Assembly (NCBI GenBank): GCA_049323795.1
Contig: JBMOOH010000005.1
Coordinates: forward strand, 2,261 to 66,260
From: Pseudomonadota bacterium
GTDB taxonomy: Bacteria > Pseudomonadota > Alphaproteobacteria > Rhodobacterales > Rhodobacteraceae
DNA length: 64,000 nt
Direction: 5' to 3'
A program made the position numbers and the translations under genes. Numbering within the stretch: the stretch's first letter is position 1; every line of letters begins with the position of its first letter. The notes under the pieces were generated by a model that made no database searches, was not told the origin of the DNA, and worked only from the letters and a program-made list of their open reading frames with translations. Of the stretch, positions 9,831 to 35,164 are shown one piece after another.

Positions 9831-10052
9831 GAACACTCCAACCGCCGGCAAAATCGGCACGGGACGGTCGCCGGACTAACCTGCGTCAGTGCAGAAGGGC
9901 TCGGACATGGGACAGATGGAGATGTGCCCGCCGAATGGTTGGGGGCACGGTTTTTCCGAGTACCCGAGAAGCGTATGGGCATGCGGCAACCCAATCTGTC
10001 CGCATGCCTGCGCGCTTCCTATTCTCGGAACGTCCAGGAAAGGACAATCCCA

Positions 10053-10241: not shown

Positions 10242-10299
10242 CGTCCGGCGTCTGACGTGACCACCGGGGCCGCCTGCCGATCGACGGAGGGCGGCCCTC

Positions 10300-13985: not shown

Positions 13986-13994
13986 CGAATCGGG

Positions 13995-14025
13995 TAAATA
14001 ATGTCTCCAGCACCTATAGGTTCAA
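13995..14025 (-). promoter_or_regulatory. MerR-type promoter/operator for the Zn/Cd ATPase (TTGAAC-19 bp-TATTTA with internal dyad)
   Basis: Minus strand reads CTTGAAC CTATAGGTGCTGGAGACAT TATTTA. The 19-bp spacer is typical of MerR-family promoters. A perfect palindrome ACCTATAGGT lies at 14012-14021. The site sits between divergent ATPase and MerR genes. Confidence 0.7.
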
Positions 14026-15865: not shown

Positions 15866-15867
15866 CG

Positions 15868-16884: not shown

Positions 16885-16888
16885 GCGC

Positions 16889-17737: not shown

Positions 17738-17759
17738 ATTTCCTAAAATCGGGAAATAT
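17736..17759. promoter_or_regulatory. AT-rich perfect inverted repeat ATATTTCC-N8-GGAAATAT over the arsR::arsC SD/start
   Basis: Read directly: atatttcc at 17736-17743 and ggaaatat at 17752-17759. On the minus strand the repeat ends in the ATG of arsR::arsC. It stands out in GC-rich DNA. It could be an operator or an RNA hairpin over the SD. Confidence 0.5.
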
Positions 17760-17970
17760 TCCGCGAGGTCCAGTGAAGGTTTTGTGACACCCCCCCGGAT
17801 GCCATGGCGCCACCGCCACCCGCGGCGCTGCGGCGATCATTCCGCCCCGAAAGAACGCCGGACCCCGGCAGCGAACTCCGCCAGCGCTATCGCGGCGCTT
17901 CGGGCGCACCATCTGGCGACGATGGTGAGGGGGGCCAGCCCGCCCGCGGTTCGGGGAAGGCCCGAACGAT

Positions 17971-18134: not shown

Positions 18135-20819
<2,685 letters not shown>

Positions 20820-20838
20820 CCTTGATCCCTCTTCCACG

Positions 20839-21876
20839 TCACGTCTCCACTTCTTGCATGATGTTCGGCCGGTCCCGGCGCAGGGTCAAGCGCTCTTGCG
20901 GCGTGCGGGTTCGCCCTCGACCGCCGGCAGGGCAGATGCCATGGCGCGGGGTCCCGGCCGGTCCGGCCGGGATTTGACCGCCAGTCGCTGATCTCGTCCC
21001 CTCGGCCGCGGTCTGCACCGCCGTCCCGGACAGGGGCGCCTCGATGTGCATCCCGGCATCGACATGCAGCACTTCCCCGGTCACCGCGGCGGTGTAGTCG
21101 CTGGCCAGGAGCAGCGCCGCCCGGCCGACCTCGTCGGCCTCGATCCCGCGGCGCAGGGGCGCCGCCCGGGCACTCGCGTCCAGAAGCGAGGAGAGCCCGA
21201 TCAGGCCCGACGCGGCGCGCGTCGCCACCGGCCCGGCCGAGATCGCGTTGACGCGGATGGCCTGCGGGCCGAGTTCGTGGGCCAGATAGCGCACGCTGGC
21301 CTCGAGCGCCGCCTTGACCGGGCCCATGACGCTGTAGTGATCCACCACCCGCTCGGCACCGAGATAGCTGAGCGTGATCAGGCTACCGCCCGCGGCCATC
21401 AGGGGCTCGACCAGGCGCGCGATGCGGATGAAGGAATGCACCGATACGGTCATCGCCTCGGCGAAGCCTTCGGCCGAGCAATCGGTCAGCCGGCCCTGCA
21501 GATCCTCCGGCCGGACCTTGCCGACCGCGTGCAGCACGAAGTCGAGCCGCCCCCAGCGGTCGCGGATCGCGCCGAAGACCGCCTCGAGCCCGCCGGGCGC
21601 GGCAACGTCGCAGGGCATGAAGATCGCGGCCTCGACACGCTCGGCCAGCGGCGCGACATGGGCACGGGTGCGGTCGTTCACATGGGTCAGCGCCAGGTCG
21701 GCGCCCGCTTGGCGGAAATGCAGCGCGGCCGACCAGGCCAGGCTGCGGTCGTTGGCGATGCCGATGACCAGCCCCTTGCGGCCGCCGAGATCCAGCAGTT
21801 CGCGCGGATCGCAGCATTCCTCGAAACGAGGCCGGGGTGCCGGGGCCTGCCCGGCCGATGCGGTGGTCGTGCTCAT
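20839..21876 (-). CDS. enoyl-ACP reductase FabI-like SDR with an N-terminal and an approximately 60-aa C-terminal extension
   Basis: [14 protein letters not shown]...[30 protein letters not shown]...RVNAISAGP...HVDAG. The start ATG overlaps the pta stop (TGATG). Confidence 0.8.
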
Positions 21877-22907
21877 CAGGGTCCGGCTCCCGGCAGCGGA
21901 CAGCAGTCCGCCTCGGACGCAGGCGCGGCCGGCAGCGACCGCTGCGGCTCATCGCCGCGGGGCGTGCCGGAGCGGCCCGTCCGGTCCCTGCCGCTCAAGA
22001 GCACGGCCAGCGCCAGCGAGGCGATGCGGGTGTCCTCGGTGTCGGCGCGCGAGGTCAGCACCACCGGCGCGGCAAGCCCCAGGGCCACGCCCGCGGCCTT
22101 CGCCCCGGCCAGGTATTCCAGCGCCTTGGCCAGCACGTTGCCGCTGACCAGATCGGGAACGAGGAGGATGTCGGCGCGGCCCGCCACGTCCGACACGATC
22201 CCCTTCTCGGCCGCGGCCCGCGGCGACACCGCGTTGTCGAAGGCGAGCGGGCCGTCCACCACGGCCCCGGCGATCTGTCCGCGCCGGGCCATGAGCGTGA
22301 GGCTGGCGGCATCCAGCGTCGAGACCACGCCCGGCGTCACCGTCTCGACCGCCGAGACCACCGCGACGCGGGGCTCGGCGATCCCGAGCGCGTGAAAGGC
22401 ATCGACCGCGTTCTGGAGGATCTGCGCCTTGGCGGCGAGGTCGGGGGCGATGTTCACCGCGGCGTCGGTGACGCCGATCAGCCGGTCGTGGCCCGGCACC
22501 TGAAGCAGGAAGAGGTGGCTCACCCGCAGGCCCGGCAGCCGCAGCCCGGTCGCGGCGTCCAGCAGGACACGCATGAAGGTGTCGGTGTGCAGGTTGCCCT
22601 TCATCACCACGTCCGCCCTGCCCTCGCGCACCAGCCGGACGGCCAGAGCCGCGGCCCCCGCGTCCGGGGCGCTGTCATGCAGGCAGACGGCGTCGAGCGC
22701 CAGTCCGGCCGCGGCGGCCAGCGGCTCGATCTCGGCGCGCGGGCCGACCAGATGCGGCACGGCGAGACCCTCGTCCACCGCGCGGGCCATGGTCGCCAGC
22801 ACCACTTCCTGCGCGGCGTCGGCGACGGCGACACGCACCGGTCCCCGGGCGCGGGCGCGCATGATGAGGGCATCGAGCGAGGTTGCCGTCGCCATCTCGT
22901 CCATCAC
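21876..22907 (-). CDS. pta: phosphate acetyl/butyryltransferase (short PTA_PTB type)
   Basis: VVMKGNLHTDTFMRVLLD...LIGVTDAAVNIAPDL...SGNVLAKALEY. Start codon GTG 22907 or ATG 22904, overlapping the ackA stop. Confidence 0.8.
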   Translation of the reverse strand: MMDEMATATSLDALIMRARARGPVRVAVADAAQEVVLATMARAVDEGLAVPHLVGPRAEIEPLAAAAGLALDAVCLHDSAPDAGAAALAVRLVREGRADVVMKGNLHTDTFMRVLLDAATGLRLPGLRVSHLFLLQVPGHDRLIGVTDAAVNIAPDLAAKAQILQNAVDAFHALGIAEPRVAVVSAVETVTPGVVSTLDAASLTLMARRGQIAGAVVDGPLAFDNAVSPRAAAEKGIVSDVAGRADILLVPDLVSGNVLAKALEYLAGAKAAGVALGLAAPVVLTSRADTEDTRIASLALAVLLSGRDRTGRSGTPRGDEPQRSLPAAPASEADCCPLPGAGP

Positions 22908-24172
22908 GAGGCCTCCCTCGCCGGCTCGCTGCGCCCGCCACAGAGCCGCGCGACATGCGTGGCGATCATCGCTTCCTCGTCGGTCTGGCGCACCTCGACC
23001 GTCACGCCGGCGCCCGGCGCCGAGACGATCCGCCGGCCCCCGGCATTGGCCGCAGGATCGAGGTCGATCCCCAGATAGCCGAGCCCGGCACAGACCAGCG
23101 CGCGCACCGGCGCGGCGTTGGCACCGATGCCGCCGGTGAAGACCAGCCGGTCGATCCCTTCCAGCGGCGCGGTCAGCGCCACCAGATGGCGGCGGACATG
23201 ATAGCAGAAATAGCCGATCGCCTCGGCCGAGGCGGCATCGTGGCGCTCGATCAGGTCGCGCATGTCGCTGCTCTGTCCGGAAAGCCCGAGCAGGCCCGAG
23301 CCGGACATCAGCATCTCTCCGACCGATGCCGCCGTCATGCCGCGTTCCCGCATCAGGTGCAGCACGAGCCCGGGGTCCACATCGCCCGACCGGGTGCCCA
23401 TCGGCACGCCGGCAAGGGTCGAGAAGCCCATCGTCGTCTCGATCGACCGCCCGCCGCGGATCGCGGCGAGCGAGGCGCCATTGCCGAGATGGGCGACGAC
23501 GATCCGTTCGGAGGACAGATCCACGCCGTCCCGGGCCAGTGCCACCACGATGTATTCGTAGCTCAGCCCGTGATAGCCGTAGCGCCGCAGCTCGGGGGTC
23601 TCGATCGCCCGCGGCAGACCGGTCATCCGCGCCAGCCGCGGCAGGCCGTTGTGGAAGGCGGTGTCGAAACAGGCGATCTGAGGCAGGTCGGGCCGCAGTG
23701 AGGCGATGGCCTCGATCCCGTCGATGTTGGCCGGCAGGTGCAGGGGCGCCAGCGGCACCAGCGCGCGCAGCCGGTCCCGCAGCCCGGGCGTGACCGGAAC
23801 GGGGCAGTCGCAGTCCGGCCCGCCATGGGCGACGCGGTGCCCGACGCCGACGAGGGGGTGGCCGCCGCCTTCGGCGCGAACCGCCCTAAGCACGGCATCG
23901 AGCGCCGCACGGTGGCTGTCGAACCGGCCCGGGCGCGCGGTCGTCCCGGCCCCCTGCCCGGCCCCCTGCCCGGCCCCCTGCCCGGCCCCCCGCCCGGCGC
24001 CCCGCCCGGCGCCCAGCGGGCCGGTCATCGAGAGGCTGGCCTTGCCGCCCCCGATGCCGGTCACCGCGCCATGCGCAAGGCGCCCCTCGCCCCCGTCCGC
24101 GTCCGCGTCGAAGAGCGCGAACTTGAGGCTGGAGGATCCGGCATTCAGGACCAGGATCGCCGATCCGGTCAC
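22904..24172 (-). CDS. ackA: acetate (propionate) kinase, with an internal Gly/Ala/Gln/Arg repeat insertion
   Basis: ILVLNAGSSSLKFALFD...GHRVAHGG...YGYHGLSYEY...VVAHLGNGASL...LVFTGGIGANA. Likely GTG start at 24172, 2 nt after the upstream small ORF stop. Alternative ATG at 24199. Confidence 0.9.
   Translation of the reverse strand: MTGSAILVLNAGSSSLKFALFDADADGGEGRLAHGAVTGIGGGKASLSMTGPLGAGRGAGRGAGQGAGQGAGQGAGTTARPGRFDSHRAALDAVLRAVRAEGGGHPLVGVGHRVAHGGPDCDCPVPVTPGLRDRLRALVPLAPLHLPANIDGIEAIASLRPDLPQIACFDTAFHNGLPRLARMTGLPRAIETPELRRYGYHGLSYEYIVVALARDGVDLSSERIVVAHLGNGASLAAIRGGRSIETTMGFSTLAGVPMGTRSGDVDPGLVLHLMRERGMTAASVGEMLMSGSGLLGLSGQSSDMRDLIERHDAASAEAIGYFCYHVRRHLVALTAPLEGIDRLVFTGGIGANAAPVRALVCAGLGYLGIDLDPAANAGGRRIVSAPGAGVTVEVRQTDEEAMIATHVARLCGGRSEPAREAS
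23945..24016. repeat. 12-bp tandem repeat x6 (cccggccccctg and variants) inside ackA
   Basis: Units start at 23945, 23957, 23969, 23981, 23993 and 24005. The repeat is in frame and encodes GAGRGAGRGAGQGAGQGAGQGAG. Confidence 0.9.
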
Positions 24173-24173
24173 G

Positions 24174-24413
24174 TCATGGCCTCCTGTCCGGGGGTGCATC
24201 GCCCTCCGGCGGAGGATCGGTGTCGGCCGGGGTCTGCCCGGTCCCCCTGTGCGCGCCGGGTCCGTGATGGCCGGAATGGCCGCCCGCCCCCCCCCGCCCG
24301 CCGTGGCCGCCCCGTCCACCGTGGCCGCCATGGCCACCGTGCCCGAACAGGTGCATCGCGATCATCCCGCCGACGAGCAGCAGGATGAGCCAGTTGTCAT
24401 ATATCCACTGCAT
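24174..24413 (-). CDS. small membrane protein with a His/Gly-rich tail (DUF2933-like, from memory)
   Basis: MQWIYDNWLILLLVGGMIAMHLFGHGGHGGHGGRGGHGGRGGAGGHSGHHGPGAH... The ATG at 24413 is 3 nt after the DUF3141 stop, and the stop is 2 nt before the ackA GTG, so it is coupled on both sides. Confidence 0.65.
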   Translation of the reverse strand: MQWIYDNWLILLLVGGMIAMHLFGHGGHGGHGGRGGHGGRGGAGGHSGHHGPGAHRGTGQTPADTDPPPEGDAPPDRRP

Positions 24414-24416
24414 GGC

Positions 24417-26222
24417 TCAGCCGCCCTTTCCGGAGGTGAGGTCGCCGGGCGGGGTGAAGACGGACCTGAACGCCAGTGCGACGGCAGTGTCGCGCGCCGT
24501 GCGCAGCGCACCGAGGCCCGCTCCGATCCGGTCCAGCGTCTCGCGTTCGGCCAAGATGGAGGGATGGTCGTCGGCCAGCGGCGCGCGGGTCCGGCGGACC
24601 GTGCCGGCCAGCATCTCGACCGAGCGCATCCATGGGTTGTAGCGCGCCGAGAACATCAGCCGGCTCCAGCGCATCGGATGGAGCGCGCGCAGCGCCTCGG
24701 CGCTGGCCGGTGTCGTCCAGGCCCGGATCCAGGGCCCCCAGAAGAGATCATAGGCCGCTCCGCCCAGGGCCGAGACCTGCGCGACCGTCTCCAATGCGCC
24801 CGAGGAGCTGACGGCGCCGAGGTCGGCGACATCGCGCTCCTCGAAGCGCACCACGTAGCCGGGCTTGCGGCAGTCGGGATCGCCGGTCGGATTGTCGATC
24901 TTCATTTCGTAGAGACCGGGCGCCAGCGCCTCGATCTCGCCCAGGCTGTCCAGGATCGCGCGGTGCTCGAACCGGGCCACCGCGGCCGAGACGAAGATGC
25001 CGAGATGGCCGACATGCGGATTGACGAGATAGACGATACGCTGGCCTGCGGCCTTCAGCGCGGCGGTGTCGGGATAGACCCTGGGGATCCAGCCCAGCGC
25101 CTGCGCCGGCGGGGTGATGTTGTCGCCCTCCGAGGCGAAGACCACGACCGGGCCGTGGATGCGGCGGAGGTCGGCCGAGCAGTCCTCGTCGATCCGCATC
25201 TCGCCGGTTTCCAGCTTGTTGCCGATGAAGAGGTTTTCGGTGATCGCGAGGATCTCCTCGCGGCTCAGCGTGTAGAAGCCGTTCCACCAGCGCTCGAAGT
25301 CGAGGAACCGGTCGCGCTCGGTGTCGACATGCGCGAAGAGATGGGCGTATTTCTCCCAGATCGCCTTTTCCGGCTGCAGCCCTTCGAAGTTCTGCGCCAG
25401 CCAGGCGCCGTCGAAACGGCCGTCCCCCAGGTCGGCCGCCATGTGCGCGGCCCAGACCCCGCCGGCCAGCGCGCCCATCATCCGCATCGGGCTGGTCTCG
25501 GGCGCGCCCGCCCAGTAGCTGAGCGGCGCGCCGTTCAGCACGACCGGACCGGCCAGACCCTCGCAGTCGGCCGCCAGCAGCGTCACCGCCCATCCGGCCT
25601 GGCAGTTGCCGTAAAGCACCGGCGGATGGTCGGGATGGCGCCTGGCGACCTCGGCCACGAAGCGGCGCAGGGCATGGTGGACATCGGCCAGCGTCTGGCC
25701 GGGTTCCGGCTCGGGGAAGAACATCACGAAATAGACGGGATGGCCCTCGTGCAGGGCGATGCCCAGTTCGCTGTCGCGCTTGAAACCGCCGATGCCCGGC
25801 CCGTGTCCCGCGCGCGGATCGAGCACGATCACCGGCGGCTTGGCCGGATCGACGCAATCGTCCCAGCAGGTGTCGCCAAGGCGCGTGATCCGGAGCAGCG
25901 CGTAGTTCGCGGGCGTCTCGAAGCGCCGCGCGTCGAGAAGCATCTCGCTGTCGAAGTCGAGCAGCGGCGGCATGCCCTGACGCTCGTGCTCGATCATGTT
26001 GTCGGCCCGAGCGCGCAGCGTGTCGAGAAACAGGATCCAGCGTTCGGCCAGATCCTTCGGATAGGAGGCTGCGGCTGTCGCCGCATCGCCGGCCCGCGCG
26101 GCCGTTGCGGCGGATGGCCTGGCGGCCGCCGATGTCGCGGCGGCCTGGGTGACGGCCGCCGGCATGGGCGCGGGCACCGGGGCGCGCCGCGTGGTCCTGT
26201 GATGCGTTCCCGTGGCGGTCAT
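24417..26222 (-). CDS. DUF3141 / 3-hydroxyalkanoate-synthetase-like alpha/beta-hydrolase protein
   Basis: 601 aa. It holds the 'orfA' position upstream of ackA/pta/fabI, as in the Sinorhizobium meliloti orfA-pta-ackA locus. The family was assigned from memory of this conserved neighbourhood and the overall sequence character. Confidence 0.65.
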   Translation of the reverse strand: MTATGTHHRTTRRAPVPAPMPAAVTQAAATSAAARPSAATAARAGDAATAAASYPKDLAERWILFLDTLRARADNMIEHERQGMPPLLDFDSEMLLDARRFETPANYALLRITRLGDTCWDDCVDPAKPPVIVLDPRAGHGPGIGGFKRDSELGIALHEGHPVYFVMFFPEPEPGQTLADVHHALRRFVAEVARRHPDHPPVLYGNCQAGWAVTLLAADCEGLAGPVVLNGAPLSYWAGAPETSPMRMMGALAGGVWAAHMAADLGDGRFDGAWLAQNFEGLQPEKAIWEKYAHLFAHVDTERDRFLDFERWWNGFYTLSREEILAITENLFIGNKLETGEMRIDEDCSADLRRIHGPVVVFASEGDNITPPAQALGWIPRVYPDTAALKAAGQRIVYLVNPHVGHLGIFVSAAVARFEHRAILDSLGEIEALAPGLYEMKIDNPTGDPDCRKPGYVVRFEERDVADLGAVSSSGALETVAQVSALGGAAYDLFWGPWIRAWTTPASAEALRALHPMRWSRLMFSARYNPWMRSVEMLAGTVRRTRAPLADDHPSILAERETLDRIGAGLGALRTARDTAVALAFRSVFTPPGDLTSGKGG

Positions 26223-26394
26223 GACGCGCTCCTTTCAGTTGTCATTGTTCGTCTGTCGCTTCTGACCGTCCCAAGCCCCGGCGTTGCGACGCCCGAGAGA
26301 CAGACGTATGCCGGGGTCGCACATTACAGCCGGTTCCCGTCGTGCCGGTCTCGCCCGGTCCGGCCCGGCTGCCCCCTCGATCCCGCCGAACGGG

Positions 26395-27554
26395 TCAACC
26401 GGGAGGTGCGGCTGCGGCCGGCCCGGGGCCCGGGTCGTAATCGCCGTGCCGGCACCAGACGCAGTCGCATTCCTCGTGTCTGCAGCTCGGATCGGCAAGC
26501 GGGGCACGCCAGTATCGCTGCGCGACCGGAAGCAACAGCCGTTTCAGCGGCGTGAGAGCATAGGCGCGGCGCAGGAGGTCGCCCGCGTCGCGCCGGCCCA
26601 GCCGACCGACAGCCAACCGAATCCCGGTCGCGCTCGCGGCAGTAGTGAAGATCCACCGGTTGACCAGGCCGGCCTTCAGCCCCGGGCCCAGGTCAGCCTG
26701 CCAGAGCGCGGCAAGTCGCCGCCGGCCAGGATGCTGCGGGCCGCCAGCACACCCGAGCGGATCGCATAGCGGATCCCGAAACCCGCCAGCGCATCCTGAA
26801 AGCCGGCATGTTCGCCGATCACCGGATGGCCGCCCTGCATTGCCGTGCGCGGCAGCCGGACATTGCCGTAGCCGCCGAATGGCCGGGGATTGCGCATCTC
26901 GAGGCCCGAATGGGTGCGGAACCACGCCTCTGCCGCGGCGACATGGCGCGCCTGGTCGCGGAAGCGGGCGAACATGCAGCTTGCCACCGTTCCCCGCCCG
27001 TTGTGCACGAGCAGATAGGCATAGCCACCGGGGGCCACGGCATCGCCGAGCGCCAGCCACGCGCCATCGGCCATGCCGGTCTCGAAGACGTGACCCGCTG
27101 CGATCACCGTGGCCTCGCGCGGCCCGGCGGCGAGAACACCGGCGCCGTCGAACGCGCGCACCCGGTCGCCGAAGCGGAGTTCGACGCCGGCTGCCTCGGC
27201 CTGCGCCGCCAGCCCGCGGTCGAGCGTGCCCGCCTCCGGCCCGCGGCGGACGAGGTAGAACAGCGGCCGCCTGCCGGTCACGTCGTGGCGCCTCCCGGTC
27301 GGATCGAAGACCGCCCCGCGGTCGACGCCGTGATACTCGAAACTGGCGGCGATGCCGGCCTCGGCCAGGTCGTCGAGCACGTCGGACCCGCGGCTCCAGT
27401 TCTCGATGCCCTGGAAGTCGTCGTGAAACCGATGGCCGACGCCGTGCTTCCATTCGCGCACCACCACGCGCGCGCCGCCCTTCGCCAGAACGATGGCACA
27501 GGCAAGCCCGGCGGGTCCTGCACCGACGACCGTGAGTGCGTCGTCACGGCGCAT
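26395..27554 (-). pseudogene. FAD-dependent oxidoreductase (geranylgeranyl-reductase-like) with an apparent 1-nt frameshift near 26713
   Basis: The N-terminal frame (26676..27554) has VVGAGPAGLACAIVLAKGGARVVV. After ...SILAGGD the coding-looking sequence (high GC3) continues in another frame as LAALWQADLGPGLKAGLVNRWIF...CRHEECDCVWCRHG to a stop at 26395. Confidence 0.6.
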
Positions 27555-27585
27555 GTTTGCAGCCTCCGTTCCCCCCGGCCCGGTG

Positions 27586-28434
27586 TCAGGCCACGGCGAG
27601 GATCACCAGACCCAGCCCCACCACGCTGCCGCCAAGGGCAAGCTTGACCCCGTCACGGTGGTGGAGGTTCCAGTGCGCCAGCCGGTTCAGCCCGGCGCGC
27701 GACGAGGCGGCAAGCAGGATGCCGACCAGGGGCAGGATGAACATCACGTTGTAGACCAGAAGATAGCCGTAGCTTTCGGTCAGGCCGGGCTGCAGCGCCA
27801 GAAGGCTGATGATCGCCAGATAGACCGCGCCCGAGCAGGGCACGGTGCACAGGCTGATCAGCGCGCCGAGGCCGAACATCGTGGCCGCCGAGGCCGCCCC
27901 GTCGGCCCCGCGCACGCGGCGCCCGACCCAGGCCGGCGCGGCAAGCCGCGGTCCGACACCGGGCAGGAAGTAGTCCTTCAGCATCCACAGGCCCAGCAAC
28001 ACCGACAGAAGCGCGCCGAGCCGCGCCCCGAAGTGGTTCTGCGCCAGCGTCGTCGAAATCTGCATCAGCCCGGCGCCCAGCACCAGATAGGCCAGGAAGA
28101 TCGCCAGAACGAAGGCGCCGCCGTTGCGCAACATGCGTCCGCGGACCTGCGACACGGCCGCAGGACCGGCATTGCCCGCCGTGGCCAGTAGCGCCGCGAT
28201 GAACAGCAAAAGCAGCGTGAACGAACAGGGATTGATCCCATCGGCAAGCCCGGCCAGGACGATCACGGGCAGCGTGATCTCGGGCCGCGTCAGAAGCCCG
28301 GCCATGCCGCCCTGGGGCGCGAGGCCCGTCGGCAGCCAGCCTGCGGCCAACGCGATTGCGATGGCACCAAGCGCCGCAAGCCCAAGGACTGCGGCCACGG
28401 GCCTGCGACGGAAACCCGGTATCGCCATTCTCAC
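27586..28434 (-). CDS. CcdA/DsbD-family thiol-disulfide-transfer membrane protein
   Basis: Polytopic membrane protein with the two TM cysteines typical of the family (GINPCSFTLL and LCTVPCSGAVY). GTG at 28434 overlaps the upstream stop; alternative ATG at 28428. Confidence 0.7.
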   Translation of the reverse strand: MRMAIPGFRRRPVAAVLGLAALGAIAIALAAGWLPTGLAPQGGMAGLLTRPEITLPVIVLAGLADGINPCSFTLLLLFIAALLATAGNAGPAAVSQVRGRMLRNGGAFVLAIFLAYLVLGAGLMQISTTLAQNHFGARLGALLSVLLGLWMLKDYFLPGVGPRLAAPAWVGRRVRGADGAASAATMFGLGALISLCTVPCSGAVYLAIISLLALQPGLTESYGYLLVYNVMFILPLVGILLAASSRAGLNRLAHWNLHHRDGVKLALGGSVVGLGLVILAVA

Positions 28435-28898
28435 GCCTCGACGATCAGTCGGCCGTTCATGTAGGGATTGGCTTTCCCCCCGCAGCAGACGTTGCAGTAG
28501 AAGCCGTAGGTGCCGGGCTTGTCCACGGTGAAGCTGACCAGCTGCTCGGAAAGCGGTCCCACCTTGAAATCGAGGCCAAGTTCCTCGCTGGCGAACTGGT
28601 GCCAGCCGCCGCCGTCCGAATGCAGCGAATTGTCACGGTTGACCAGGAGCAGACGGACCGGCTGTCCCGCCTTCACGGTCAGCACGTTCGGGGCAAAGCC
28701 GCTCATCGAGATGGAGACGGGCACGGCGTCGGCCGCGGCGCCGGACAGGTTCTGACGCAGCGCCGGCCACAGGAAGTAGCCGGCCGCACCGAGCGACCCG
28801 GCCGCGACGAGGCCGAAGGCGAGCAGGCTGCGCCGGGTGGGCCTGCCGGCGGTCGCGCCCGGGTGGCCGGGCCGGGCGTTCTTGGGGGCGGTGTTCAT
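28431..28898 (-). CDS. Tat-exported cupredoxin-fold protein with an atypical Cys-rich ligand loop
   Basis: RRSLLAFGLVAAG signal, then VLTVKAGQPVRLLLVNRD...PGTYGFYCNVCCGGKANPYMNGRLIV. ATG at 28898 has a GGAGAT SD. An alternative ATG at 28976 overlaps the upstream stop (ATGA). Confidence 0.7.
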   Translation of the reverse strand: MNTAPKNARPGHPGATAGRPTRRSLLAFGLVAAGSLGAAGYFLWPALRQNLSGAAADAVPVSISMSGFAPNVLTVKAGQPVRLLLVNRDNSLHSDGGGWHQFASEELGLDFKVGPLSEQLVSFTVDKPGTYGFYCNVCCGGKANPYMNGRLIVEA

Positions 28899-28972
28899 GG
28901 ATGTTCGATCTCCGGTTGGGGCGTCGGTCGGGCTGGAGGCAGCCGCCCGTGGCCGGGTGGCCGCCGCTGCGC

Positions 28973-29725
28973 TCATCCAATTGACGCAGCACGGCGCGAC
29001 AGATTACGGGGGCGTTCGGCCACGACGACCTGGTAGAGCCCGCCGAGACAGCGCCGCTCGCGCCAGCGGAAATGTCCGGACGCAGAGGCGAGCGACGCGA
29101 TCGGCGTGCGCCACATTTCGGCGGCAAAGGGCTCCAGCAGGCGAAACACCGCGCCCATCACCGGCCGGAGCGGGTTCCAGGCGGCGGGCCGCGCGTAATC
29201 GACGAAAACCGCCCGCCCGCCCGGCTCGACACGGGCGAGGGCGGCATCGACCGCCCGCCGCTTGTGGGCGGGGGGCAGTTCGTGCAGCAGGAAAAAGACC
29301 AGGATCGCATCGTAGGCGACGTCATGGCCGGAGGCGCCCGGGTCCGCGGCATCCGCCTGATGCACCCGTGCGTTGGAGAACCGGCGCAGTTTGCGCGCGG
29401 TGTTGGCGACCTGGATCGGCGCGATGTCGATCACGTCCAGCGCCCCGTGCGGGCCGAGGCGCGCAGCCAGCCGTTGCGACAGGTCGCCATAGACGCAGGC
29501 GACCTGAAGGACCCGGTCCCCGGGCGCGACTTCGGCGAGGGCGGCGTCCGTCAGGCGGCGATACTGGCCCCACAGGATCGCCGATGCCATTGCGGTGCGA
29601 TCGAAGACGCGAAGGCTGGCGGGCCGCAGATAGGCCCACCGGTAGTGCCGTTCGAGATAATCGGGAAGGCCGGCCGGTGCAGTGTCTGCCCCGGCCAGGT
29701 CCGGCACTTCGCCCCCGTCAGCCAC
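28973..29725 (-). CDS. class I SAM-dependent-methyltransferase-fold protein with RquA-like motif I (candidate rhodoquinone biosynthesis enzyme)
   Basis: DYLERHYRWAYL...VLQVACVYGDLSQRLAARLGPHGALDVIDIAP...ILVFFLLHELP...GGRAVFVDY. Motif I is LQVACVYG instead of LDxGxGxG (Asp to Gln, Gly to Val). Confidence 0.6.
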   Translation of the reverse strand: MADGGEVPDLAGADTAPAGLPDYLERHYRWAYLRPASLRVFDRTAMASAILWGQYRRLTDAALAEVAPGDRVLQVACVYGDLSQRLAARLGPHGALDVIDIAPIQVANTARKLRRFSNARVHQADAADPGASGHDVAYDAILVFFLLHELPPAHKRRAVDAALARVEPGGRAVFVDYARPAAWNPLRPVMGAVFRLLEPFAAEMWRTPIASLASASGHFRWRERRCLGGLYQVVVAERPRNLSRRAASIG

Positions 29726-30473
29726 GCGCTCGGCTTCCCAGGAAGCCGAGCGCGACGATCGCGACCGCTCCGGCGACGAAGACCCAGAGCATCCAGGTCG
29801 GCAGGTAGAAGGTCATGTAGACTTCCCAGCCGAGCCAGCCCAGGCTTTTCGTCACCAGTGACGGCGTCCCGTTCAGCGATCCGCCAAGCGTGCCGGTGAT
29901 CGTCACCACGGCGGTCCCGATCAGGGTCAGCAGGAAAGTGACCCAGCGCTGCGCCCCGTCGAAGAGATGCTGCCGGAAGCGGTAGCCGAGGATGCCCATC
30001 ACCGTCCAGTAGCTGAGCGTCCAGGTCGCCAGCATGATGTGGTTGCGCCCCAGCGGCGATTCCGTGATCGCCGACCAGGGATAGATCGACAGCCCCAGCC
30101 CATAGGCCACGACGCCCGAGAGCGAGCCCAGCAGGATCAGCGGCCAGACCGACTTCTGCAGCCGCACCGCCAGATCGGAGTCCGAGAAGACCCGGAAAAA
30201 GATGAAGAGCGCGGCAGTCAGCCACAGCGCGATCGGGAAATGCACCACCAGGATGTGATAGACTGGGCTGATCGAGAAGCGCGGCGCGCCTTCCAGCGCG
30301 ACCGGCACCCCGCCAGCCTGGCTGCTGGCCAGCGCGGCTCCGACGGTTGCGGCCAGCGCGCCTGCGGCAAGCAGGGCCCTGCGTGCCGTCATGTCGAAGA
30401 TCCGAAGTCCTTGCATGGGTCGATCCTTGCTCTGTGCGGGGCTGGCGATCCGGATTGGGTTGCTGCGGGTCAT
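29718..30473 (-). CDS. DUF2231-like integral membrane protein (possible haem-binding)
   Basis: Multi-TM protein with VVHFPIALWL and later conserved-looking His residues. ATG at 30473 overlaps the upstream stop (ATGA). Alternative starts at 30416 and 30392 (Tat-like MTARRALLAAGA). Confidence 0.55.
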   Translation of the reverse strand: MTRSNPIRIASPAQSKDRPMQGLRIFDMTARRALLAAGALAATVGAALASSQAGGVPVALEGAPRFSISPVYHILVVHFPIALWLTAALFIFFRVFSDSDLAVRLQKSVWPLILLGSLSGVVAYGLGLSIYPWSAITESPLGRNHIMLATWTLSYWTVMGILGYRFRQHLFDGAQRWVTFLLTLIGTAVVTITGTLGGSLNGTPSLVTKSLGWLGWEVYMTFYLPTWMLWVFVAGAVAIVALGFLGSRARG

Positions 30474-31858
30474 CTGAGGTCCTCCTGGCGCCGGTAGAGC
30501 AGCAGCATCGAGATGCCGAGCGCGGCGATCAGGCCCACGCTCGCGGCCAGCGTCCACAGCCATTGCCGCTTGATTTCCTTGGCGAACTCGACTTCGACGC
30601 CATAGAGCGCGAGTTGCCGCTCGGAGTGGCGGTAGGCGACCGGCACGCGCTGCGCGATCTTGTCGGCGCCCGGGTGCTGACGCGGATCGACCAGACGCGA
30701 CCAGCTGACCTGGCCGGGGTAGAAGACCGTCATCTCGGTCCACGGCCCGCTCCAGTCGGGCTGCCCCGGCTGGGAGCGCTGCACCGAGATCTGCCCCGGG
30801 GCGTCAAGGCCGAGCGAGACCGGCAGGGAAATGTAGTGCCAGCGCATGGTCGAGGAATTGCGGAATACCGCGAAGGCGAGATCGTAGCTGCCGCCTTCGC
30901 GGAAGATCTTGTCCTCCAGGGGATCGCCCGTATCCATCGCCCGCTGCAGCGTCACGTCCCAGTAGCCGTCGCTCCAGCGCGCGGCCTGCGGCATCACGAT
31001 GTCGCCGCGCGACCCGCCGGCAGCGCGCAGAACCTGCGCCGGCAGGGTGTCGCCCTCCTTCCAGCCGGCATTGGGGTCGAAGGGCACGGCCGCGGATTCG
31101 GCCAGGAAATAGGGCGCGTCGAAGCTGACCGTGCCTGCGGCCACTTCCTCCGCCGTCACCTTCCCGGCACCGGCGGCACCCGGCGCGAACATGAAGCGCG
31201 GCTGTCCGGTCGCCTCGTCGAAGTTCGAATCGTAGGGCGCAGTGCCGCTGTCTTCCTCGCGCGCCGCGCTGACAGAAGTGTCGTCAGCCTGCGCCAGGGG
31301 ATTGGTGCGGGCCGACTTCCAGTCCCAGAGGTCCAGGAAATACCCCGCCTTGCGCAGGTCGAGCAGCTCGTTCCCGGGGCGGACCGTCTCGAACTTGTTC
31401 GGATCGGTCCGGGTCTGCGGGAGGTACTTGCTGCGCTCCTCCGCGGTTTCGGGCACGCCGGTGAAGCTCGTCAGCCCGTCGCCGATGGTGATGTAGCCGC
31501 CATAGCGCGAGAACAGCGGCACCGAGCCGTCGTCCACCATCATCGCCACCCGGTCCTCGATCAGCCGGTCGGGGTCGGACCCGAGTTCCTCGCCCTCGCG
31601 CAGGGACCATTTGCCGCCCTCGTAGACCAGCAGGTTGTTGACGAGGTTCGGCTGTTCCGCCGGCCAGCGGTAGCGGAACCAGATCGACTGGCCGTCATAG
31701 GCGACCTTCACCTGCAGGGTGCTGGTCAGTTCCTTCGGGATCGCGATGTTTCGTTCGGGGTCATCGCCGATGATGCCGGTGCGGTGGTTGACCCAGGCGG
31801 CCACCAGAAGCCCGGTGAAGATGACCGACGCCGCGGCAAGATAGGGCAGTCTTCGCAT
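30470..31858 (-). CDS. EB_dh (ethylbenzene-dehydrogenase gamma-like, DOMON-related) haem-domain protein with N- and C-terminal membrane anchors
   Basis: QVKVAYDGQSIWFRYRWP...FLDLWDWKSARTNP...YWDVTLQRAM...FAVF. ATG at 31858 with a GAGGAG SD. C-terminal TM segment WLWTLAASVGLIAALGISMLLLY. Confidence 0.65.
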   Translation of the reverse strand: MRRLPYLAAASVIFTGLLVAAWVNHRTGIIGDDPERNIAIPKELTSTLQVKVAYDGQSIWFRYRWPAEQPNLVNNLLVYEGGKWSLREGEELGSDPDRLIEDRVAMMVDDGSVPLFSRYGGYITIGDGLTSFTGVPETAEERSKYLPQTRTDPNKFETVRPGNELLDLRKAGYFLDLWDWKSARTNPLAQADDTSVSAAREEDSGTAPYDSNFDEATGQPRFMFAPGAAGAGKVTAEEVAAGTVSFDAPYFLAESAAVPFDPNAGWKEGDTLPAQVLRAAGGSRGDIVMPQAARWSDGYWDVTLQRAMDTGDPLEDKIFREGGSYDLAFAVFRNSSTMRWHYISLPVSLGLDAPGQISVQRSQPGQPDWSGPWTEMTVFYPGQVSWSRLVDPRQHPGADKIAQRVPVAYRHSERQLALYGVEVEFAKEIKRQWLWTLAASVGLIAALGISMLLLYRRQEDLR

Positions 31859-31974
31859 TGCTGTGCGCTCCTCTGCTTGGTCACGGACACGGGAACGCAC
31901 ACGATGCCGGCGCGGGTCGCGCCGACGGTCGGCCGACCCCGGACGAAGACATAGACGCAGATTTTCCCGATTCC

Positions 31975-32352
31975 TTACAGAGCCTGCCGCATGCCGGCGT
32001 CCGCGGCCGCATCCGGCGTGCCGCAGCCGCAGGCGGGGGTTTGATCCCGGCCCTCCTCGGCGCCGCCCGTCTGGCACAGCCCGAGGGCCATCAGCACCGC
32101 GATGTCGCGCCGGATCTCCATCAGCATCGCCGCGGCCTCGCCGGGATCGAGGCCGAGGTCGGACGTCGCCTCGGCAAGCGTCTGCCCCTTGATGTCGCAG
32201 CGCAGGAACAGATCGCGGCGGAGCCGGACGGCGCGGCGCTGGGCCTCGGGCAGGCAGGCGCAGAACAGTGAATTCAGGACGGCACGGAACTCGGCATCGA
32301 CCTGCAACTCGTCGTCGAGGCCGGAACAGGACTCCTCCCTAGCGTTCGTCAT
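31975..32352 (-). CDS. small sigma-70-region-4-like HTH protein with Cys pairs (CAC, CGC)
   Basis: 125 aa: ...LFCACLPEAQRRAVRLRRDLFLRCDIKGQTLAEATSDLGLDPGEAAAMLMEIRRDIAVLM...PACGCG... ATG at 32352 with a purine-rich SD. No family recognised. Confidence 0.45.
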   Translation of the reverse strand: MTNAREESCSGLDDELQVDAEFRAVLNSLFCACLPEAQRRAVRLRRDLFLRCDIKGQTLAEATSDLGLDPGEAAAMLMEIRRDIAVLMALGLCQTGGAEEGRDQTPACGCGTPDAAADAGMRQAL

Positions 32353-32437
32353 GTGCTCTCTCTCCCTGGCTGATCGGCGCAAAGGCCGTTCAGCCCGGGA
32401 GACGCTCCGGCGGCGCCCCCATTACCAATGGCTGGGC

Positions 32438-33070
32438 TCAGGTGGCGTCCACGTCGTCGCACCGGGTCTGGTGCTCGACGTTCTCGCAGCCGCCGGGCAT
32501 GCAGGAACAATCGTCGAAGCCATGCTGGCAGCAGGGACCGCAATGGCCGACCAGCAGGTCGCGGAGCGCCTTGCGGGCGCGGTGGAGGCGCACCGCCAGC
32601 GTACCCGGCCGGATGCCGAGATCGGCGGCGACCGCGGCATGGTCCGCGAGGCCGAGGTCGATCCGCCGGATCAGGTCGGCGTCGGCGGGGCGCAGTCCGG
32701 GAACCAGTCCCCTGATGCAGCCGCAGACCAGATCCATCGCCTCGGGCGCGTCCACCGCGTCTCCGACCGCCGCCATCTCCTGCGCGAAGGCCTCGTCCAG
32801 CCGGCGCCGGCGCCCTGCCTTGCGGAAATGATCGTTGAGCGTCGAACGCAGGACCGCGTAGAGCCACGCATCGAGGCGCTCGGCATTGCGCAGCTGCTCG
32901 TGGCGGGTGAGCACCCGGATGCAGAATTCCTGCAGCACGTCCTCGGCGTCGGCGCGATTGCCGAGCCTCTTCACGAGAAACCGGAGAAACGCGCTGCGTC
33001 CGCTGGTCAGCGGCCGCTGGATCGCGGCGTTGCCGGAGACGGCCCCTGTTCCTGCCTGCTTCGCATCCAT
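32438..33070 (-). CDS. ECF sigma factor with linker CxC and a C-terminal Cys-rich domain (CorE-like, ECF44-type)
   Basis: Region 2 (DAEDVLQEFCIRVL...LDAWLYAVLRSTLNDHFR) and region 4 (LRPADADLIRRIDLGLADHAAVAADLGIRPGTLAVRLHRARKAL). LVCGCIRG lies between the regions, and the tail is HCGPCCQHGFDDCSCMPGGCENVEH. ATG at 33070. Confidence 0.8.
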   Translation of the reverse strand: MDAKQAGTGAVSGNAAIQRPLTSGRSAFLRFLVKRLGNRADAEDVLQEFCIRVLTRHEQLRNAERLDAWLYAVLRSTLNDHFRKAGRRRRLDEAFAQEMAAVGDAVDAPEAMDLVCGCIRGLVPGLRPADADLIRRIDLGLADHAAVAADLGIRPGTLAVRLHRARKALRDLLVGHCGPCCQHGFDDCSCMPGGCENVEHQTRCDDVDAT

Positions 33071-33210
33071 GTTCAACGCCTCTCTGGTCCCGAGCGCGGA
33101 TCCGCCGGTGCGCGTCAGCCGATCAGGGCGGACCATGCCTTGCGCGGGCGACTCGCGTCATGATGTAGATCAAGCATCCTGCGCAGGGCAACAGGCCGTC
33201 ATCCCCGGGG

Positions 33211-33257
33211 CCGGTATCCCCCTCCCCCCGGGGGGGGGGCGCGGGGGGCATACCCGG
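33211..33257. other. C6/G10 homopolymer-centred imperfect hairpin between the ABC ATPase gene and the ECF sigma gene
   Basis: ccggtatccccctcccccc / ggggggggggcgcggggggcatacccgg. The G10 run is at 33230-33239. Possible terminator, or a G-quadruplex/i-motif-prone tract. Confidence 0.5.
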
Positions 33258-33376
33258 GGGCCGGCACGCCCGGTCAGGCACCCGCCCCCCGCCCCTCGGC
33301 ACGTGTCCGGGTGAATGCAGCCCGGCGGCCCTGCAAGGCCGTCGCCCTCGCCGCGCCGTCCGGCCGGAAGGCGCGG

Positions 33377-35164
33377 TCAGGCGGGCACCGCCACCAGATG
33401 GCTGTCGCCCGTATCGACGAGCCTCGCGCGGACCGGACCCTCCCCGAGGGGGTGCACCGGACTGGGCACCTCACCGGACGGACGCGGGATCGCCGGTCGG
33501 ACGGCTGCCGGGTCGGGCACCGGCACGGCCTCGATCAACCGGCGCGTATAGGGGTGCTGCGGGTTGCCGAAGATCTGGGCCCGCGTGCCCATCTCGACGA
33601 TCTGGCCGAGATACATCACGGCCACCCGGTCCGAGATGTTCTCCACCACCGCCATGTCGTGGCTGATGAACAGAAAGGCGACGCCGAATTCCTGCTGCAG
33701 AGTCCGGAGCAGGTCGAGGACGCGGGCCTGCACGCTGACATCGAGTGCGCTGACGCTCTCGTCGGCGATGATCAGGTCGGGCTGCAGCGCCAGGGCGCGG
33801 GCGATGCAGATGCGCTGGCGCTGCCCGCCGGAGAATTCGTGCGGGTAGCGGTCAAGCTGGTCGGCCGTCAGGCCCACGCGCCTCATGAGGTCTGCCGCGC
33901 GCGCACGGCGCGCGTCGGCCGGGCCGATGCCATGGATGAGGAGCGGCTCGGCAATCTGGTCGCCCGCCGTCATGCGGGGGTCGAGCGCTGCCATCGGGTC
34001 CTGGAACACCATCTGGACGCGGCGGCGCAGGGCCGCAAGACCGGACCTGTCCGTGTCGGACAGCGCCTTCCCGGCGATCTCGATCCGGCCCTCATGCGGC
34101 ACCAGGCCGACCATGGCCTTGGCGATCGTCGACTTGCCGCAACCGGATTCGCCGACGAGCGCCAGCGTCTCGCCCCGGCGGATGTCGAAACTGACGTGCT
34201 CCACGGCATGGATCAGGTGGGTTGTCCGGCCGAGAAGGCCGCCCTTCAGCGGAAAGCGCACCACGACGTCCGAAAGGCGGGCGATCGGTGACCCGCGCGG
34301 CGGCGCGCGGCGGGCGCCCTGCCCCATGCGCGGCACCGCGGCAAGGAGGTCGCGTGTGTACTGGGCCTTGGGCGCCGCGAAGAGGGATGCGACCGGCGCT
34401 TCCTCGACCATCGCGCCGCTGCGCATGACGATGACGCGGTCGGCCATTTCCGCCACCACGCCCATGTCGTGGGTGATCAGGATGATCGCGGTGCCGGTCT
34501 CGCGCTGGAGGTCGCGCAGAAGGTCGAGGACCTCTCGCTGGACCGTCACGTCGAGCGCGGTGGTCGGTTCGTCGGCGATCAGCACCTCGGGCCGGAGGGC
34601 GAGCGCCATGGCGATCATGACCCGCTGGCGCATGCCCCCGGAGAGTTCGTGCGGATACTGGGTCAGGCGCCGCTCGGGCTGCGACAGGCGCACGGCGCGG
34701 AGCGCCCGAAGTGCGCGGGCCCGCGCCTCGGTCCGGCCGACCGGCTCATGCGCGCGGATCGCCTCGGCAAGCTGCGTGCCCACCGTCATGACCGGGTTCA
34801 GGCTGGTCATCGGCTCCTGGAAGATCATGGCGATGCGGTCGCCGCGGATCGCGCGGAGACGCGCCTCGGGCAGGCCGGTCAGCTCGGTTTCCCCCAGATG
34901 GACCGCGCCGCCCGTCACCCGGACCGCGGGCGGGAGAAGGCCCATGATGGCGAGCGAGGTGATGGACTTGCCCGACCCGCTTTCGCCCGCGATGCAGAGC
35001 GTCTCGCCGCGGCGCAGGGTGAAGGAAAGGCCGTCGACGAGCGGCAGCGATCCTTCCCCGGCCCTGACCGAGACCGTCAGCCCCCGCACCGTCAGGACAG
35101 GCGGCTGCTCCGGGACCGTGGCGACCCCGGAGCCCGCGGTTTCGACGCCCGTCGCAGCCGTCAT
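33377..35164 (-). CDS. fused double ABC ATPase (DppD/DppF-like) of the peptide/nickel importer family
   Basis: Two cassettes: GESGSGKS...LSGGMRQRV and GESGCGKST...FSGGQRQRI. The ATG overlaps the upstream stop (ATGA). Confidence 0.9.
   Translation of the reverse strand: MTAATGVETAGSGVATVPEQPPVLTVRGLTVSVRAGEGSLPLVDGLSFTLRRGETLCIAGESGSGKSITSLAIMGLLPPAVRVTGGAVHLGETELTGLPEARLRAIRGDRIAMIFQEPMTSLNPVMTVGTQLAEAIRAHEPVGRTEARARALRALRAVRLSQPERRLTQYPHELSGGMRQRVMIAMALALRPEVLIADEPTTALDVTVQREVLDLLRDLQRETGTAIILITHDMGVVAEMADRVIVMRSGAMVEEAPVASLFAAPKAQYTRDLLAAVPRMGQGARRAPPRGSPIARLSDVVVRFPLKGGLLGRTTHLIHAVEHVSFDIRRGETLALVGESGCGKSTIAKAMVGLVPHEGRIEIAGKALSDTDRSGLAALRRRVQMVFQDPMAALDPRMTAGDQIAEPLLIHGIGPADARRARAADLMRRVGLTADQLDRYPHEFSGGQRQRICIARALALQPDLIIADESVSALDVSVQARVLDLLRTLQQEFGVAFLFISHDMAVVENISDRVAVMYLGQIVEMGTRAQIFGNPQHPYTRRLIEAVPVPDPAAVRPAIPRPSGEVPSPVHPLGEGPVRARLVDTGDSHLVAVPA

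Follow-up and report, generated by a model that had tools for sequence, protein, structure and literature searches.

The rquA reading frame and its family

The stretch of DNA analysed here (the window) comprises 64,000 nucleotides of a Pseudomonadota genome placed by GTDB in the Rhodobacteraceae (NCBI GenBank assembly GCA_049323795.1, contig JBMOOH010000005.1, positions 2,261 to 66,260 of the forward strand), and our subject is a gene within it that encodes a member of the RquA family, the enzymes of rhodoquinone (RQ) synthesis, together with the operon in which it lies. At 28973-29725 the minus strand holds an uninterrupted open reading frame (ORF) of 250 codons plus a stop, running from a GTG start at 29725 to a stop codon ending at 28973; the plus strand of the same interval contains many stops. 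Three features define the gene:

28973-29725, minus strand: rquA, encoding a 250-amino-acid (aa) RquA protein for S-adenosylmethionine (SAM)-dependent amino transfer to ubiquinone, as predicted from its match to NF038261, its GenBank entry MFZ5708429.1 and its clade with Defluviimonas indica RquA
29483-29512, minus strand: motif I, VLQVACVYGD, residues 72-81, with the RquA-specific Q74 and V78 (alignment with UbiE and UbiG; PMC7813818)
29351-29428, minus strand: segment from D100 (29428-29426) to D125 (29353-29351), the putative counterparts of the SAM-contacting aspartates D118 and D143 of Rhodospirillum rubrum RquA

A preliminary description of this DNA, which did not state the strand, had reported a 250-aa protein of class I methyltransferase fold, and both the ORF and the Pfam search bear this out, with class I methyltransferase domains (Methyltransf_25, Methyltransf_12, Methyltransf_23 and Ubie_methyltran) above their gathering scores. 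Hundreds of homologues were recovered, the identical 250-aa product was called on at least nine independent metagenome contigs and in one NCBI metagenome-assembled genome (MAG), and the exact sequence is GenBank MFZ5708429.1, called 'rhodoquinone biosynthesis methyltransferase RquA' by the NCBI Prokaryotic Genome Annotation Pipeline (PGAP) on a 212-kb contig of an uncultured Pseudomonadota bacterium MAG. In DNA of 70% G+C, where many long ORFs overlap on both strands of the region, an open frame of this length might have been spurious, but that explanation is refuted by a third-position G+C content (GC3) of 0.81, as in real genes nearby, by strong matches to profile hidden Markov models (HMMs) and homologues, by conserved synteny and by the PGAP call.

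On the NCBIfam equivalog model for RquA (NF038261, rhodoquin_RquA), whose cutoff is 175 bits, the protein scores 290.2 bits (E=1e-86), with residues 20-238 spanning the entire model (1-218 of 218). The next-best NCBIfam model scored 44.7 bits; CpaM, a corrinoid-associated methyltransferase, was dismissed at 44.7 bits against a cutoff of 180. A C- or O-methyltransferase of the ordinary kind whose motif I has degenerated, whether of UbiE, UbiG or MenG type or acting on some other small molecule, would share the class I fold and the Pfam methyltransferase domains above gathering score, as well as the 26% identity over 115 residues returned by BLASTP against E. coli UbiE. Against this, UbiE models scored 15.6-36.3 bits (cutoffs 216-378) and MenG models 22-22.3 bits (cutoffs 235-420), and the UbiE, MenG and MpqE models together gave 22-36 bits (cutoffs 235-420), far below what any of them requires, beside 290 bits for the RquA model.

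Motif I separates the two types of enzyme at the level of single residues. The preliminary description had drawn attention to its exchange of Asp for Gln and of a Gly for Val, and had stated that RquA is set apart from UbiE and UbiG in this way. Aligned by MAFFT with the E. coli references (from NC_000913.3), VLQVACVYGD of the window protein stands against VLDLAGGTGD of UbiE and VLDVGCGGGI of UbiG, with Q for D at position 3 and V for G at position 7, and positions 6 and 8 deviate too, beyond the substitutions first named. The published hallmark of RquA motif I (PMC7813818) is a Gln where canonical class I methyltransferases have Asp/Glu and a Val where they have a Gly, and the window protein carries both; Q74 is found in 83 and V78 in 75 of 84 aligned RquA sequences. 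The GxGxG glycines of a methyl-transferring SAM pocket are therefore replaced as they are in RquA sequences, which argues against an ordinary methyltransferase. E. coli UbiE and UbiG resemble RquA in fold, in alignable post-I, II and III motifs and in having a prenylated benzoquinone or quinol as substrate, but differ in their glycine-rich motif I and in transferring a methyl rather than an amino group.

Outside motif I, D100 is retained in 80 and D125 in 76 of the 84 sequences, and a H148-E149 pair is also conserved. D100 falls in the column of the acidic post-I residue of UbiE and D125 in that of the Asn that follows beta-3 there, and their spacing of 25 residues is that of D118 and D143 in R. 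rubrum RquA, where both aspartates are required for RQ synthesis, SAM is the amino donor, as the preliminary description had stated, and Mn2+ is needed (Neupane et al., PMC9814641). From the UbiE alignment and this spacing we infer that D100 and D125 are the counterparts of D118 and D143. The R. rubrum enzyme (Rru_A3227; Lonjers 2012, Neupane 2022) further shares the NF038261 family, the motif I substitutions and a similar length with the window protein, and its dispensable N-terminal stretch of ~40 residues may be likened to the ~19 residues of the window protein that lie outside the model.

In a neighbour-joining tree of 84 RquA sequences with UbiE and UbiG (blosum62 distance, Biopython), the window protein grouped with the RquA protein from Defluviimonas (now Allgaiera) indica and with several Paracoccaceae/Rhodobacterales MAGs. 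Its distance to UbiE and UbiG was ~0.90-0.92, compared with no more than 0.59 to any RquA, and on these grounds we regard an ordinary methyltransferase as effectively refuted. The D. indica protein, which belongs to the published set (WP_081824947; Stairs 2018), scores 290.8 bits on NF038261 and is 59.6% identical to that of the window; among GTDB species representatives the closest RquA reaches 64% identity, and full-length copies in the related island clade score 290-295 bits. HMM and BLASTP searches, diagnostic residues and a tree including known RquA, checks of the kind that had been proposed, all favour RquA, and what had been put forward as a possible rquA homologue is, as judged from its sequence, a genuine member of the family.

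RquA is rare: 98 of 1.84 billion representatives of 50%-identity clusters match at E<=1e-30, which fits both the patchy distribution anticipated in the preliminary description and the 'extremely rare and patchy' occurrence reported by Stairs et al. (2018). The same description had thought rquA unexpected in a Rhodobacter-type organism. Uncommon it is, yet documented, since Rhodobacterales were among the seven orders with rquA listed by Stairs et al. (2018, eLife), a 2026 survey extended the list to 24 orders, and GenBank already holds the name for MFZ5708429.1. The orthologous D. indica island, as well as an rquA beside mer genes in Jannaschia helgolandensis, had also been tabulated (Stairs et al. 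2018, supplementary file 1). The identification is right but not new.

The operon and its relatives in other genomes

All genes between ~11.6 kb and 33.1 kb lie on the minus strand. With gene models taken from independent contigs and families from Pfam and NCBIfam, the order of transcription around rquA is: sigma factor of the extracytoplasmic function (ECF) type, 125-aa ORF, EB_dh-related protein, DUF2231 protein, rquA, cupredoxin, 280-aa membrane protein, flavin adenine dinucleotide (FAD)-dependent oxidoreductase, DUF3141 protein, small His/Gly-rich protein and acetate kinase. The EB_dh and DUF2231 genes overlap by 4 nucleotides and the DUF2231 gene and rquA by 8, so that the three are translationally coupled. 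The genes from EB_dh onwards are:

30470-31858, minus strand: EB_dh-related protein of 462 aa, a haem-b-type beta-sandwich with N- and C-terminal membrane helices (Pfam EB_dh, 150.1 bits against 33.3)
29718-30473, minus strand: DUF2231 membrane protein of 251 aa (Pfam DUF2231, 25.1 bits, just under the gathering score of 26.4)
28431-28898, minus strand: cupredoxin-domain protein of 155 aa whose N-terminal signal or anchor contains RR (Pfam Cupredoxin_1, 51.7 bits; weak similarity to the C-terminal Cu domain of NosZ)
27586-28428, minus strand: polytopic membrane protein of 280 aa with Pro-Cys motifs P67-C68 and P197-C198 (without a family match)
26395-27554, minus strand: gene of a FAD-dependent oxidoreductase of the geranylgeranyl-reductase/UbiH-like superfamily (NCBIfam/Pfam), frameshifted, the ORF running from 27554 to 26676
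22904-26222, minus strand: downstream operon, marked by a second promoter motif, of DUF3141 protein (24417-26222), 79-aa His/Gly-rich small membrane protein (24174-24413) and acetate/propionate kinase (22904 to ~24200)

Among the 80 GTDB RquA loci closest to the query, analysed by profile searches of six-frame translations, four (L001, L002, L003 and L005) have the EB_dh and DUF2231 genes directly upstream of rquA and a FAD oxidoreductase gene downstream. The same EB_dh-DUF2231-RquA series with a nearby FAD oxidoreductase occurs in L091/92, and a DUF2231 fragment remains at the truncated start of L007. The oxidoreductase gene adjoins rquA in L003 and L005 and lies within ~2 kb downstream in L001, L002 and L091. 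In three further loci, from Kiloniellales/Rhodospirillales MAGs (L013, L039 and L051), a distant EB_dh homologue (~33% identity) stands upstream of rquA, and between the two lies a NapC/NirT/TorC-like tetrahaem cytochrome (L051:9278-9853, L039:6378-6965, L013:8952-9665) that is anchored at its N-terminus and bears four CxxCH motifs. L032, L053 and L078 have NapC or EB_dh near rquA. Altogether about one locus in eight sets an EB_dh protein and a membrane partner of quinol-dehydrogenase type beside rquA, in at least two configurations, and a search with the EB_dh protein identified a family of 460-aa proteins among cultured Rhodobacterales and Rhizobiales. By contrast, the text of Stairs et al. 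(2018) placed rquA near neither hypothetical nor quinone-biosynthesis genes; in the window the gene belongs to a translationally coupled operon preceded by a predicted ECF promoter.

The best match to the window is the island of Allgaiera indica, whose order is P-type ATPase, transposase, sigma factor, small ORF, NirK, EB_dh, DUF2231, RquA, EF-hand protein, FAD oxidoreductase, CMAS, EamA, DUF5676, DUF3141 and AckA. Shared with the window are the sigma factor, a small ORF resembling sigma region 4, EB_dh, DUF2231, rquA, the FAD oxidoreductase, a small membrane protein, DUF3141 and acetate kinase, with a heavy-metal P-type ATPase nearby; the order DUF3141, small membrane protein, acetate kinase is the same in both (also in Stairs 2018, supplementary file 4). 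NirK, the EF-hand protein, the CMAS-like methyltransferase and EamA are confined to A. indica, and the cupredoxin, the Pro-Cys membrane protein and the frameshifted FAD oxidoreductase to the window.

Elsewhere the module occurs with rquA missing or reduced. Octadecabacter sp. SW4 (L090) carries EB_dh, DUF2231 and the FAD oxidoreductase but no rquA, between a second complex I gene set and a cytochrome oxidase, with an integrase and a transposase adjoining. In Alterinioella nitratireducens a truncated rquA of 135 aa (L093:6933-7340) sits between the DUF2231 and FAD oxidoreductase genes, flanked by Tn3-type genes; it covers positions 1-100 of 218 of the RquA model at 127 bits, under the cutoff. 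These two cases, and the mobility genes nearby, mark EB_dh, DUF2231 and the FAD oxidoreductase as a mobile module in their own right, with rquA as an optional passenger.

Individual loci add variants of their own. NirK (equivalog) precedes EB_dh in a Paracoccaceae MAG (L001:6514-7683) and in A. indica (L091:6449-7615), a Rhodobacter MAG has a paralogous Rieske Fe-S subunit (PetA equivalog) between DUF2231 and rquA (L005:9208-9801), and the Alphaproteobacteria MAG SZUA-147 (L003) carries EB_dh-DUF2231 twice, at 475-2456 and at 8298-10381, and of these pairs the former alone adjoins rquA and the FAD oxidoreductase. In a Kiloniellaceae MAG the gene directly downstream of rquA encodes a 550-aa FixC-like FAD oxidoreductase (L013:10810-12462), which by its length and a C-terminal 4Fe-4S-type motif looks like an electron-transfer-flavoprotein (ETF):quinone oxidoreductase. 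Beside rquA, such a protein is reminiscent of the ETF:rhodoquinone oxidoreductase of anaerobic mitochondria.

The AlphaFold model of the EB_dh-related protein (predicted local distance difference test (pLDDT) 70.8, predicted template modelling score (pTM) 0.71) has a beta-sandwich between an N-terminal helix and a long C-terminal helix. Its only significant PDB matches in Foldseek are NxrC (7b04_C, E=3e-7) and EbdC (2ivf_C, E=6e-6), which serve nitrite oxidoreductase and ethylbenzene dehydrogenase, respectively, as haem-b gamma subunits; there is a match at the sequence level as well. M106 and H341 of the protein are candidate axial haem ligands. It shares with them PF09459 and the fold, but is about twice as long (462 versus 214-292 aa) and anchored at both ends, and it has DUF2231 or NapC/NirT for a neighbour where EbdC and NxrC have molybdopterin and Fe-S partners. 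Neither the cluster nor any related locus holds genes for a molybdopterin alpha subunit or an Fe-S beta subunit, and because molybdoenzyme subunit genes are absent from the cluster we take the protein to be a stand-alone, membrane-anchored relative rather than a gamma subunit.

For the DUF2231 protein the model is less certain (pLDDT 61, pTM 0.47) and has no PDB fold match at E<=0.001. H73, H78 and H145 are invariant in 31 homologues and lie in predicted helices. The protein has no CxxCH motif and no detectable similarity to NapC in sequence or fold; nonetheless, NapC/NirT/TorC tetrahaem quinol dehydrogenases occupy its slot in L013, L039 and L051, a shared position that suggests an equivalent, quinol-facing role, and the invariant histidines together with this positional equivalence would be consistent with binding of haem or quinol. 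Most long-form homologues carry 'ALAH-(S/G)xGGGV' after the predicted signal or anchor helix (alignment columns ~50-62), where the window protein reads 'ALAS-SQAGGV' and lacks the His; in the short forms (183 aa) the entire N-terminal 70 residues are missing.

Downstream of rquA, the cupredoxin is missing from the related islands, with no tblastn match in the 80 RquA loci, and the 280-aa membrane protein has no Pfam match even at E=1 and none in NCBIfam; its two Pro-Cys motifs hint at a CcdA/DsbD-like protein. The FAD oxidoreductase gene has lost one nucleotide near 26714 and encodes 292 aa instead of the 385-386 expected from L082 (99.1% identity). Assemblies L081 and L083 share the frameshift and L082, L084 and L085 carry an intact gene, a pattern that looks like a real population polymorphism, common to independent assemblies, rather than an assembly error. 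Two tandem repeats fall in the downstream operon, both in frame: a 12-nucleotide unit repeated 5.8 times at 23945-24014, encoding a run of GAGQ/GAGR within the N-terminal portion of the acetate kinase ORF, and an 18-nucleotide unit repeated three times at 24292-24345, encoding the HGGHGG repeats of the 79-aa small membrane protein.

Predicted control by a CorE-like sigma factor and the surrounding metal island

The operon is headed by two putative regulatory genes and carries two copies of a promoter-like motif:

32438-33070, minus strand: predicted CorE-like (ECF44/ECF238-type) ECF sigma factor of 210 aa (Sigma70_r2, Cys signatures)
31975-32352, minus strand: protein of 125 aa with weak similarity to sigma-70 region 4 (Sigma70_r4_2, E=0.025, below threshold) and CxC pairs C31/C33 and C108/C110
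31953-31979, minus strand: predicted ECF-type promoter motif TGTAAGGAATCGGGAAAATCTGCGTCT, 95 nucleotides upstream of EB_dh and overlapping the stop of the 125-aa gene
26302-26328, minus strand: predicted ECF-type promoter motif, second copy (TGTAATGTGCGACCCCGGCATACGTCT), ~80 nucleotides upstream of the DUF3141 gene

The sigma factor scores above the Pfam gathering score for Sigma70_r2 and at 21.5 bits, under the gathering score of 25.7, for Sigma70_r4_2; its best NCBIfam matches are SigZ models (76.6-78.4 bits, under cutoffs of 169-212). In CorE-like factors of group ECF44, a domain rich in Cys (CRD) at the C-terminus and, between sigma2 and sigma4.2, a CxC motif are both needed for activity, which responds to Cu, Cd or Zn (PMC4937300, PMC8999054), and ECF44 has now been merged with B. 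subtilis SigZ into ECF238 (PMC7826278). Both features are present in the window: the linker between sigma2 and sigma4 holds C116-G-C118 (CGC, in '...EAMDLVCGCIRGLVPG...'), as it does in the L005 orthologue, and seven Cys lie within the last 34 residues (177, 180, 181, 188, 190, 195 and 204 of 210). Like CorE and CorE2 of Myxococcus xanthus, the protein combines sigma2 and sigma4 with a CxC linker and a Cys-rich C-terminus, has no adjacent gene for a membrane anti-sigma factor and lies near metal genes, but its Cys spacing is unlike that of CorE (CRD of 38 residues) or CorE2 (CRD of 28 residues with six Cys). We predict that the sigma factor upstream of the rquA operon is of the CorE-like, metal- or redox-responsive type.

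In L001, L005 and A. indica (L091), too, a small homologue of the 125-aa protein comes after the sigma gene. The protein resembles M. xanthus MXAN_0974, described as consisting of sigma4.2 and a CRD only (PMC4937300). The 125-aa protein is a possible partner of the sigma factor.

Comparison of upstream regions yielded the bipartite motif TGTAAT/G, 15-17 nucleotides, CGTCT, whose CGTC -10 element is typical of ECF promoters. TGTAAKN{15,17}CGTCT has two matches in the 64-kb window, both on the coding strand, against 0.01 expected, and none of 100 shuffles reached two; the stop codon of the 125-aa ORF falls inside the -35 element of the predicted promoter at 31979-31953. Across 93 loci compared, the motif was found in only 12, all with the EB_dh/DUF2231 module, and A. 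indica alone has four copies. It precedes the module in L001, L002, L005 and L090-L093 and has copies upstream of DUF5676/DUF3141 in L001 and L091/L092, and the remaining loci, which have no DUF2231-type module, have no motif. This co-occurrence supports, without proving, the placement of the rquA operon in a CorE-like sigma regulon, and the CxC motif, the Cys-rich tail and the matching promoter motif before the operon all agree with the metal-sensing sigma factor of the preliminary description. A sigma-70 promoter scan found nothing in 24000-33500, where terminator-like matches were at chance level. At ~33225-33265, upstream of the sigma gene and between it and an ABC-transporter ATPase gene, lies a C10/G6-rich near-palindromic tract (…GCCCCCCGCGCCCCCCCCCCGGGGGGAGGGGGA…) that could be a hairpin, a terminator or a slippage-prone run.

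The same description had placed the gene in a metal island, a fair label for ~11.6-33 kb: on the same strand as rquA, at distances of 3-17 kb, are an arsJ-gapdh-arsR/arsC set and two P1B heavy-metal ATPases. The arsenic-type set (14576-17836, minus strand) consists of an MFS (ArsJ-like) protein, glyceraldehyde-3-phosphate dehydrogenase and a fusion of an ArsR helix-turn-helix with a low-molecular-weight phosphatase (ArsC-type), and is bracketed by the ATPases, one with an HMA domain (11634-14021) and the other with three HMBD repeats (18135-20885). A FabI-like reductase is also found downstream of the rquA cluster, and ABC peptide transporters and formamidase upstream. Housekeeping genes (trpC, moaC, comEC, gltX, gltA) fill the first 9.3 kb, and neither GltX nor citrate synthase GltA of the host has a relative of at least 90% identity among 15 billion proteins. 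Synteny and the best matches make a host of Rhodobacterales type plausible; NCBI names it simply Pseudomonadota bacterium. Other genes linked to metals or redox stand at the far end, namely those of a three-domain multicopper oxidase (57459-59243, minus strand), a DsbA-like thioredoxin-fold protein (61007-61867, plus strand) and a DUF302 protein (62481-62879, minus strand).

In GC and GC3 the cluster matches the remainder of the window, with no compositional anomaly. The window holds neither a tRNA nor any other Rfam RNA, and its annotated ORFs include no integrase and no transposase. The reading of the cluster as an accessory island comes not from composition but from the patchy distribution and from the transposases and integrases beside the module in relatives. 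A tblastn search of RquA against 72,556 plasmids gave no match at E<=1e-20, and megablast of the 14-kb cluster gave matches only in the flanking ABC transporter/formamidase genes and in DUF3141.

Probable rhodoquinone synthesis and its proposed place in electron transport

The best explanation of these observations, and one we hold to be probable, is that the window encodes a functional rquA as the third gene of a coupled unit, with RQ synthesis cued by metal or redox state via the CorE-like sigma factor. In this scheme a metal or redox cue would act through the sigma factor to induce RQ synthesis. RquA, established for the family as a membrane-associated enzyme of class I methyltransferase fold that binds SAM and presumed to be so here, would with Mn2+ replace one methoxy group of ubiquinone by the alpha-amino group of SAM, with no methyl transfer, releasing methanol and forming RQ; in vitro, RquA also requires an oxidant and a reductant. 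The potential of RQ, lower by ~160 mV, would then allow electrons to reach low-potential acceptors such as fumarate at low oxygen. Rhodoquinol might also pass electrons to DUF2231 (or NapC), from there to the haem b of EB_dh and on to periplasmic acceptors.

RquA homologues from 15 species were reported to make RQ when expressed in E. coli (PMC11707229). Several points weigh against the scheme. In the same study one homologue made no RQ and the yield from several was very low, and a Desulfobacterota rquA was inactive in E. coli, so that homology alone is no guarantee of activity; nor could any RquA assayed there be matched to the island-type clade. The equivalence with D118 and D143 is drawn from the UbiE alignment and the spacing, and the predicted link between sigma factor and promoter from motif co-occurrence. 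Ubiquinone biosynthesis genes and fumarate reductase do not lie in the 64-kb window. Finally, the FAD oxidoreductase frameshift here and the 135-aa rquA of Alterinioella indicate that parts of the module are dispensable and decaying in some lineages.

Some of these points would equally suit an RquA-family protein that makes no RQ, either as an inactive relic in a decaying island or through neo-functionalisation on another quinone or substrate of the EB_dh/DUF2231/FAD oxidoreductase module. Homologues with little or no RQ in E. coli, the rquA-free triad of Octadecabacter sp. SW4 and the truncated gene of Alterinioella, which imply that the module is not strictly RquA-dependent, and the frameshifted oxidoreductase of the window strain are all compatible with this reading. 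However, the rquA ORF is intact and identical in its nine or more independent contigs, it scores 115 bits above the equivalog cutoff and retains all near-invariant positions, including both putative SAM-contacting aspartates and H148-E149, and the related island clade keeps full-length copies at 290-295 bits. We consider a loss or change of function unlikely, and a functional rquA under metal or redox control the better account.

A broader and much more tentative hypothesis, which we think possible though rather doubtful, is that RQ synthesis in a clade of Rhodobacterales-type islands, instead of standing alone under oxygen control, is part of a mobile CorE-like regulon, in which RquA feeds a dedicated quinol-oxidising module (DUF2231 or NapC/NirT with EB_dh) that passes electrons to the cupredoxin here or to NirK in A. 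indica. Our literature search found no paper tying RQ to EB_dh proteins, to DUF2231 or to a sigma factor, the sigma factor matches being judged by titles and abstracts.

With RquA well described and the name already in GenBank, identification of the gene carries little weight alone. The added value lies in the conserved operon and its predicted CorE-like control, testable in the culturable Allgaiera indica: where the published survey denied a linkage of rquA to hypothetical genes, here the gene is coupled to two uncharacterised redox-type membrane proteins, a context that also opens a path to the function of DUF2231. The regulation of bacterial RQ synthesis, and the users of rhodoquinol beyond fumarate reductase, are the questions on which this context bears, and the hypothesis addresses both what may trigger RQ synthesis (metal or redox stress instead of, or besides, anoxia) and where the electrons of rhodoquinol may go. 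If true, it would describe a new rhodoquinol-dependent respiratory branch, and provide a first function for DUF2231 and for the 460-aa EB_dh family.

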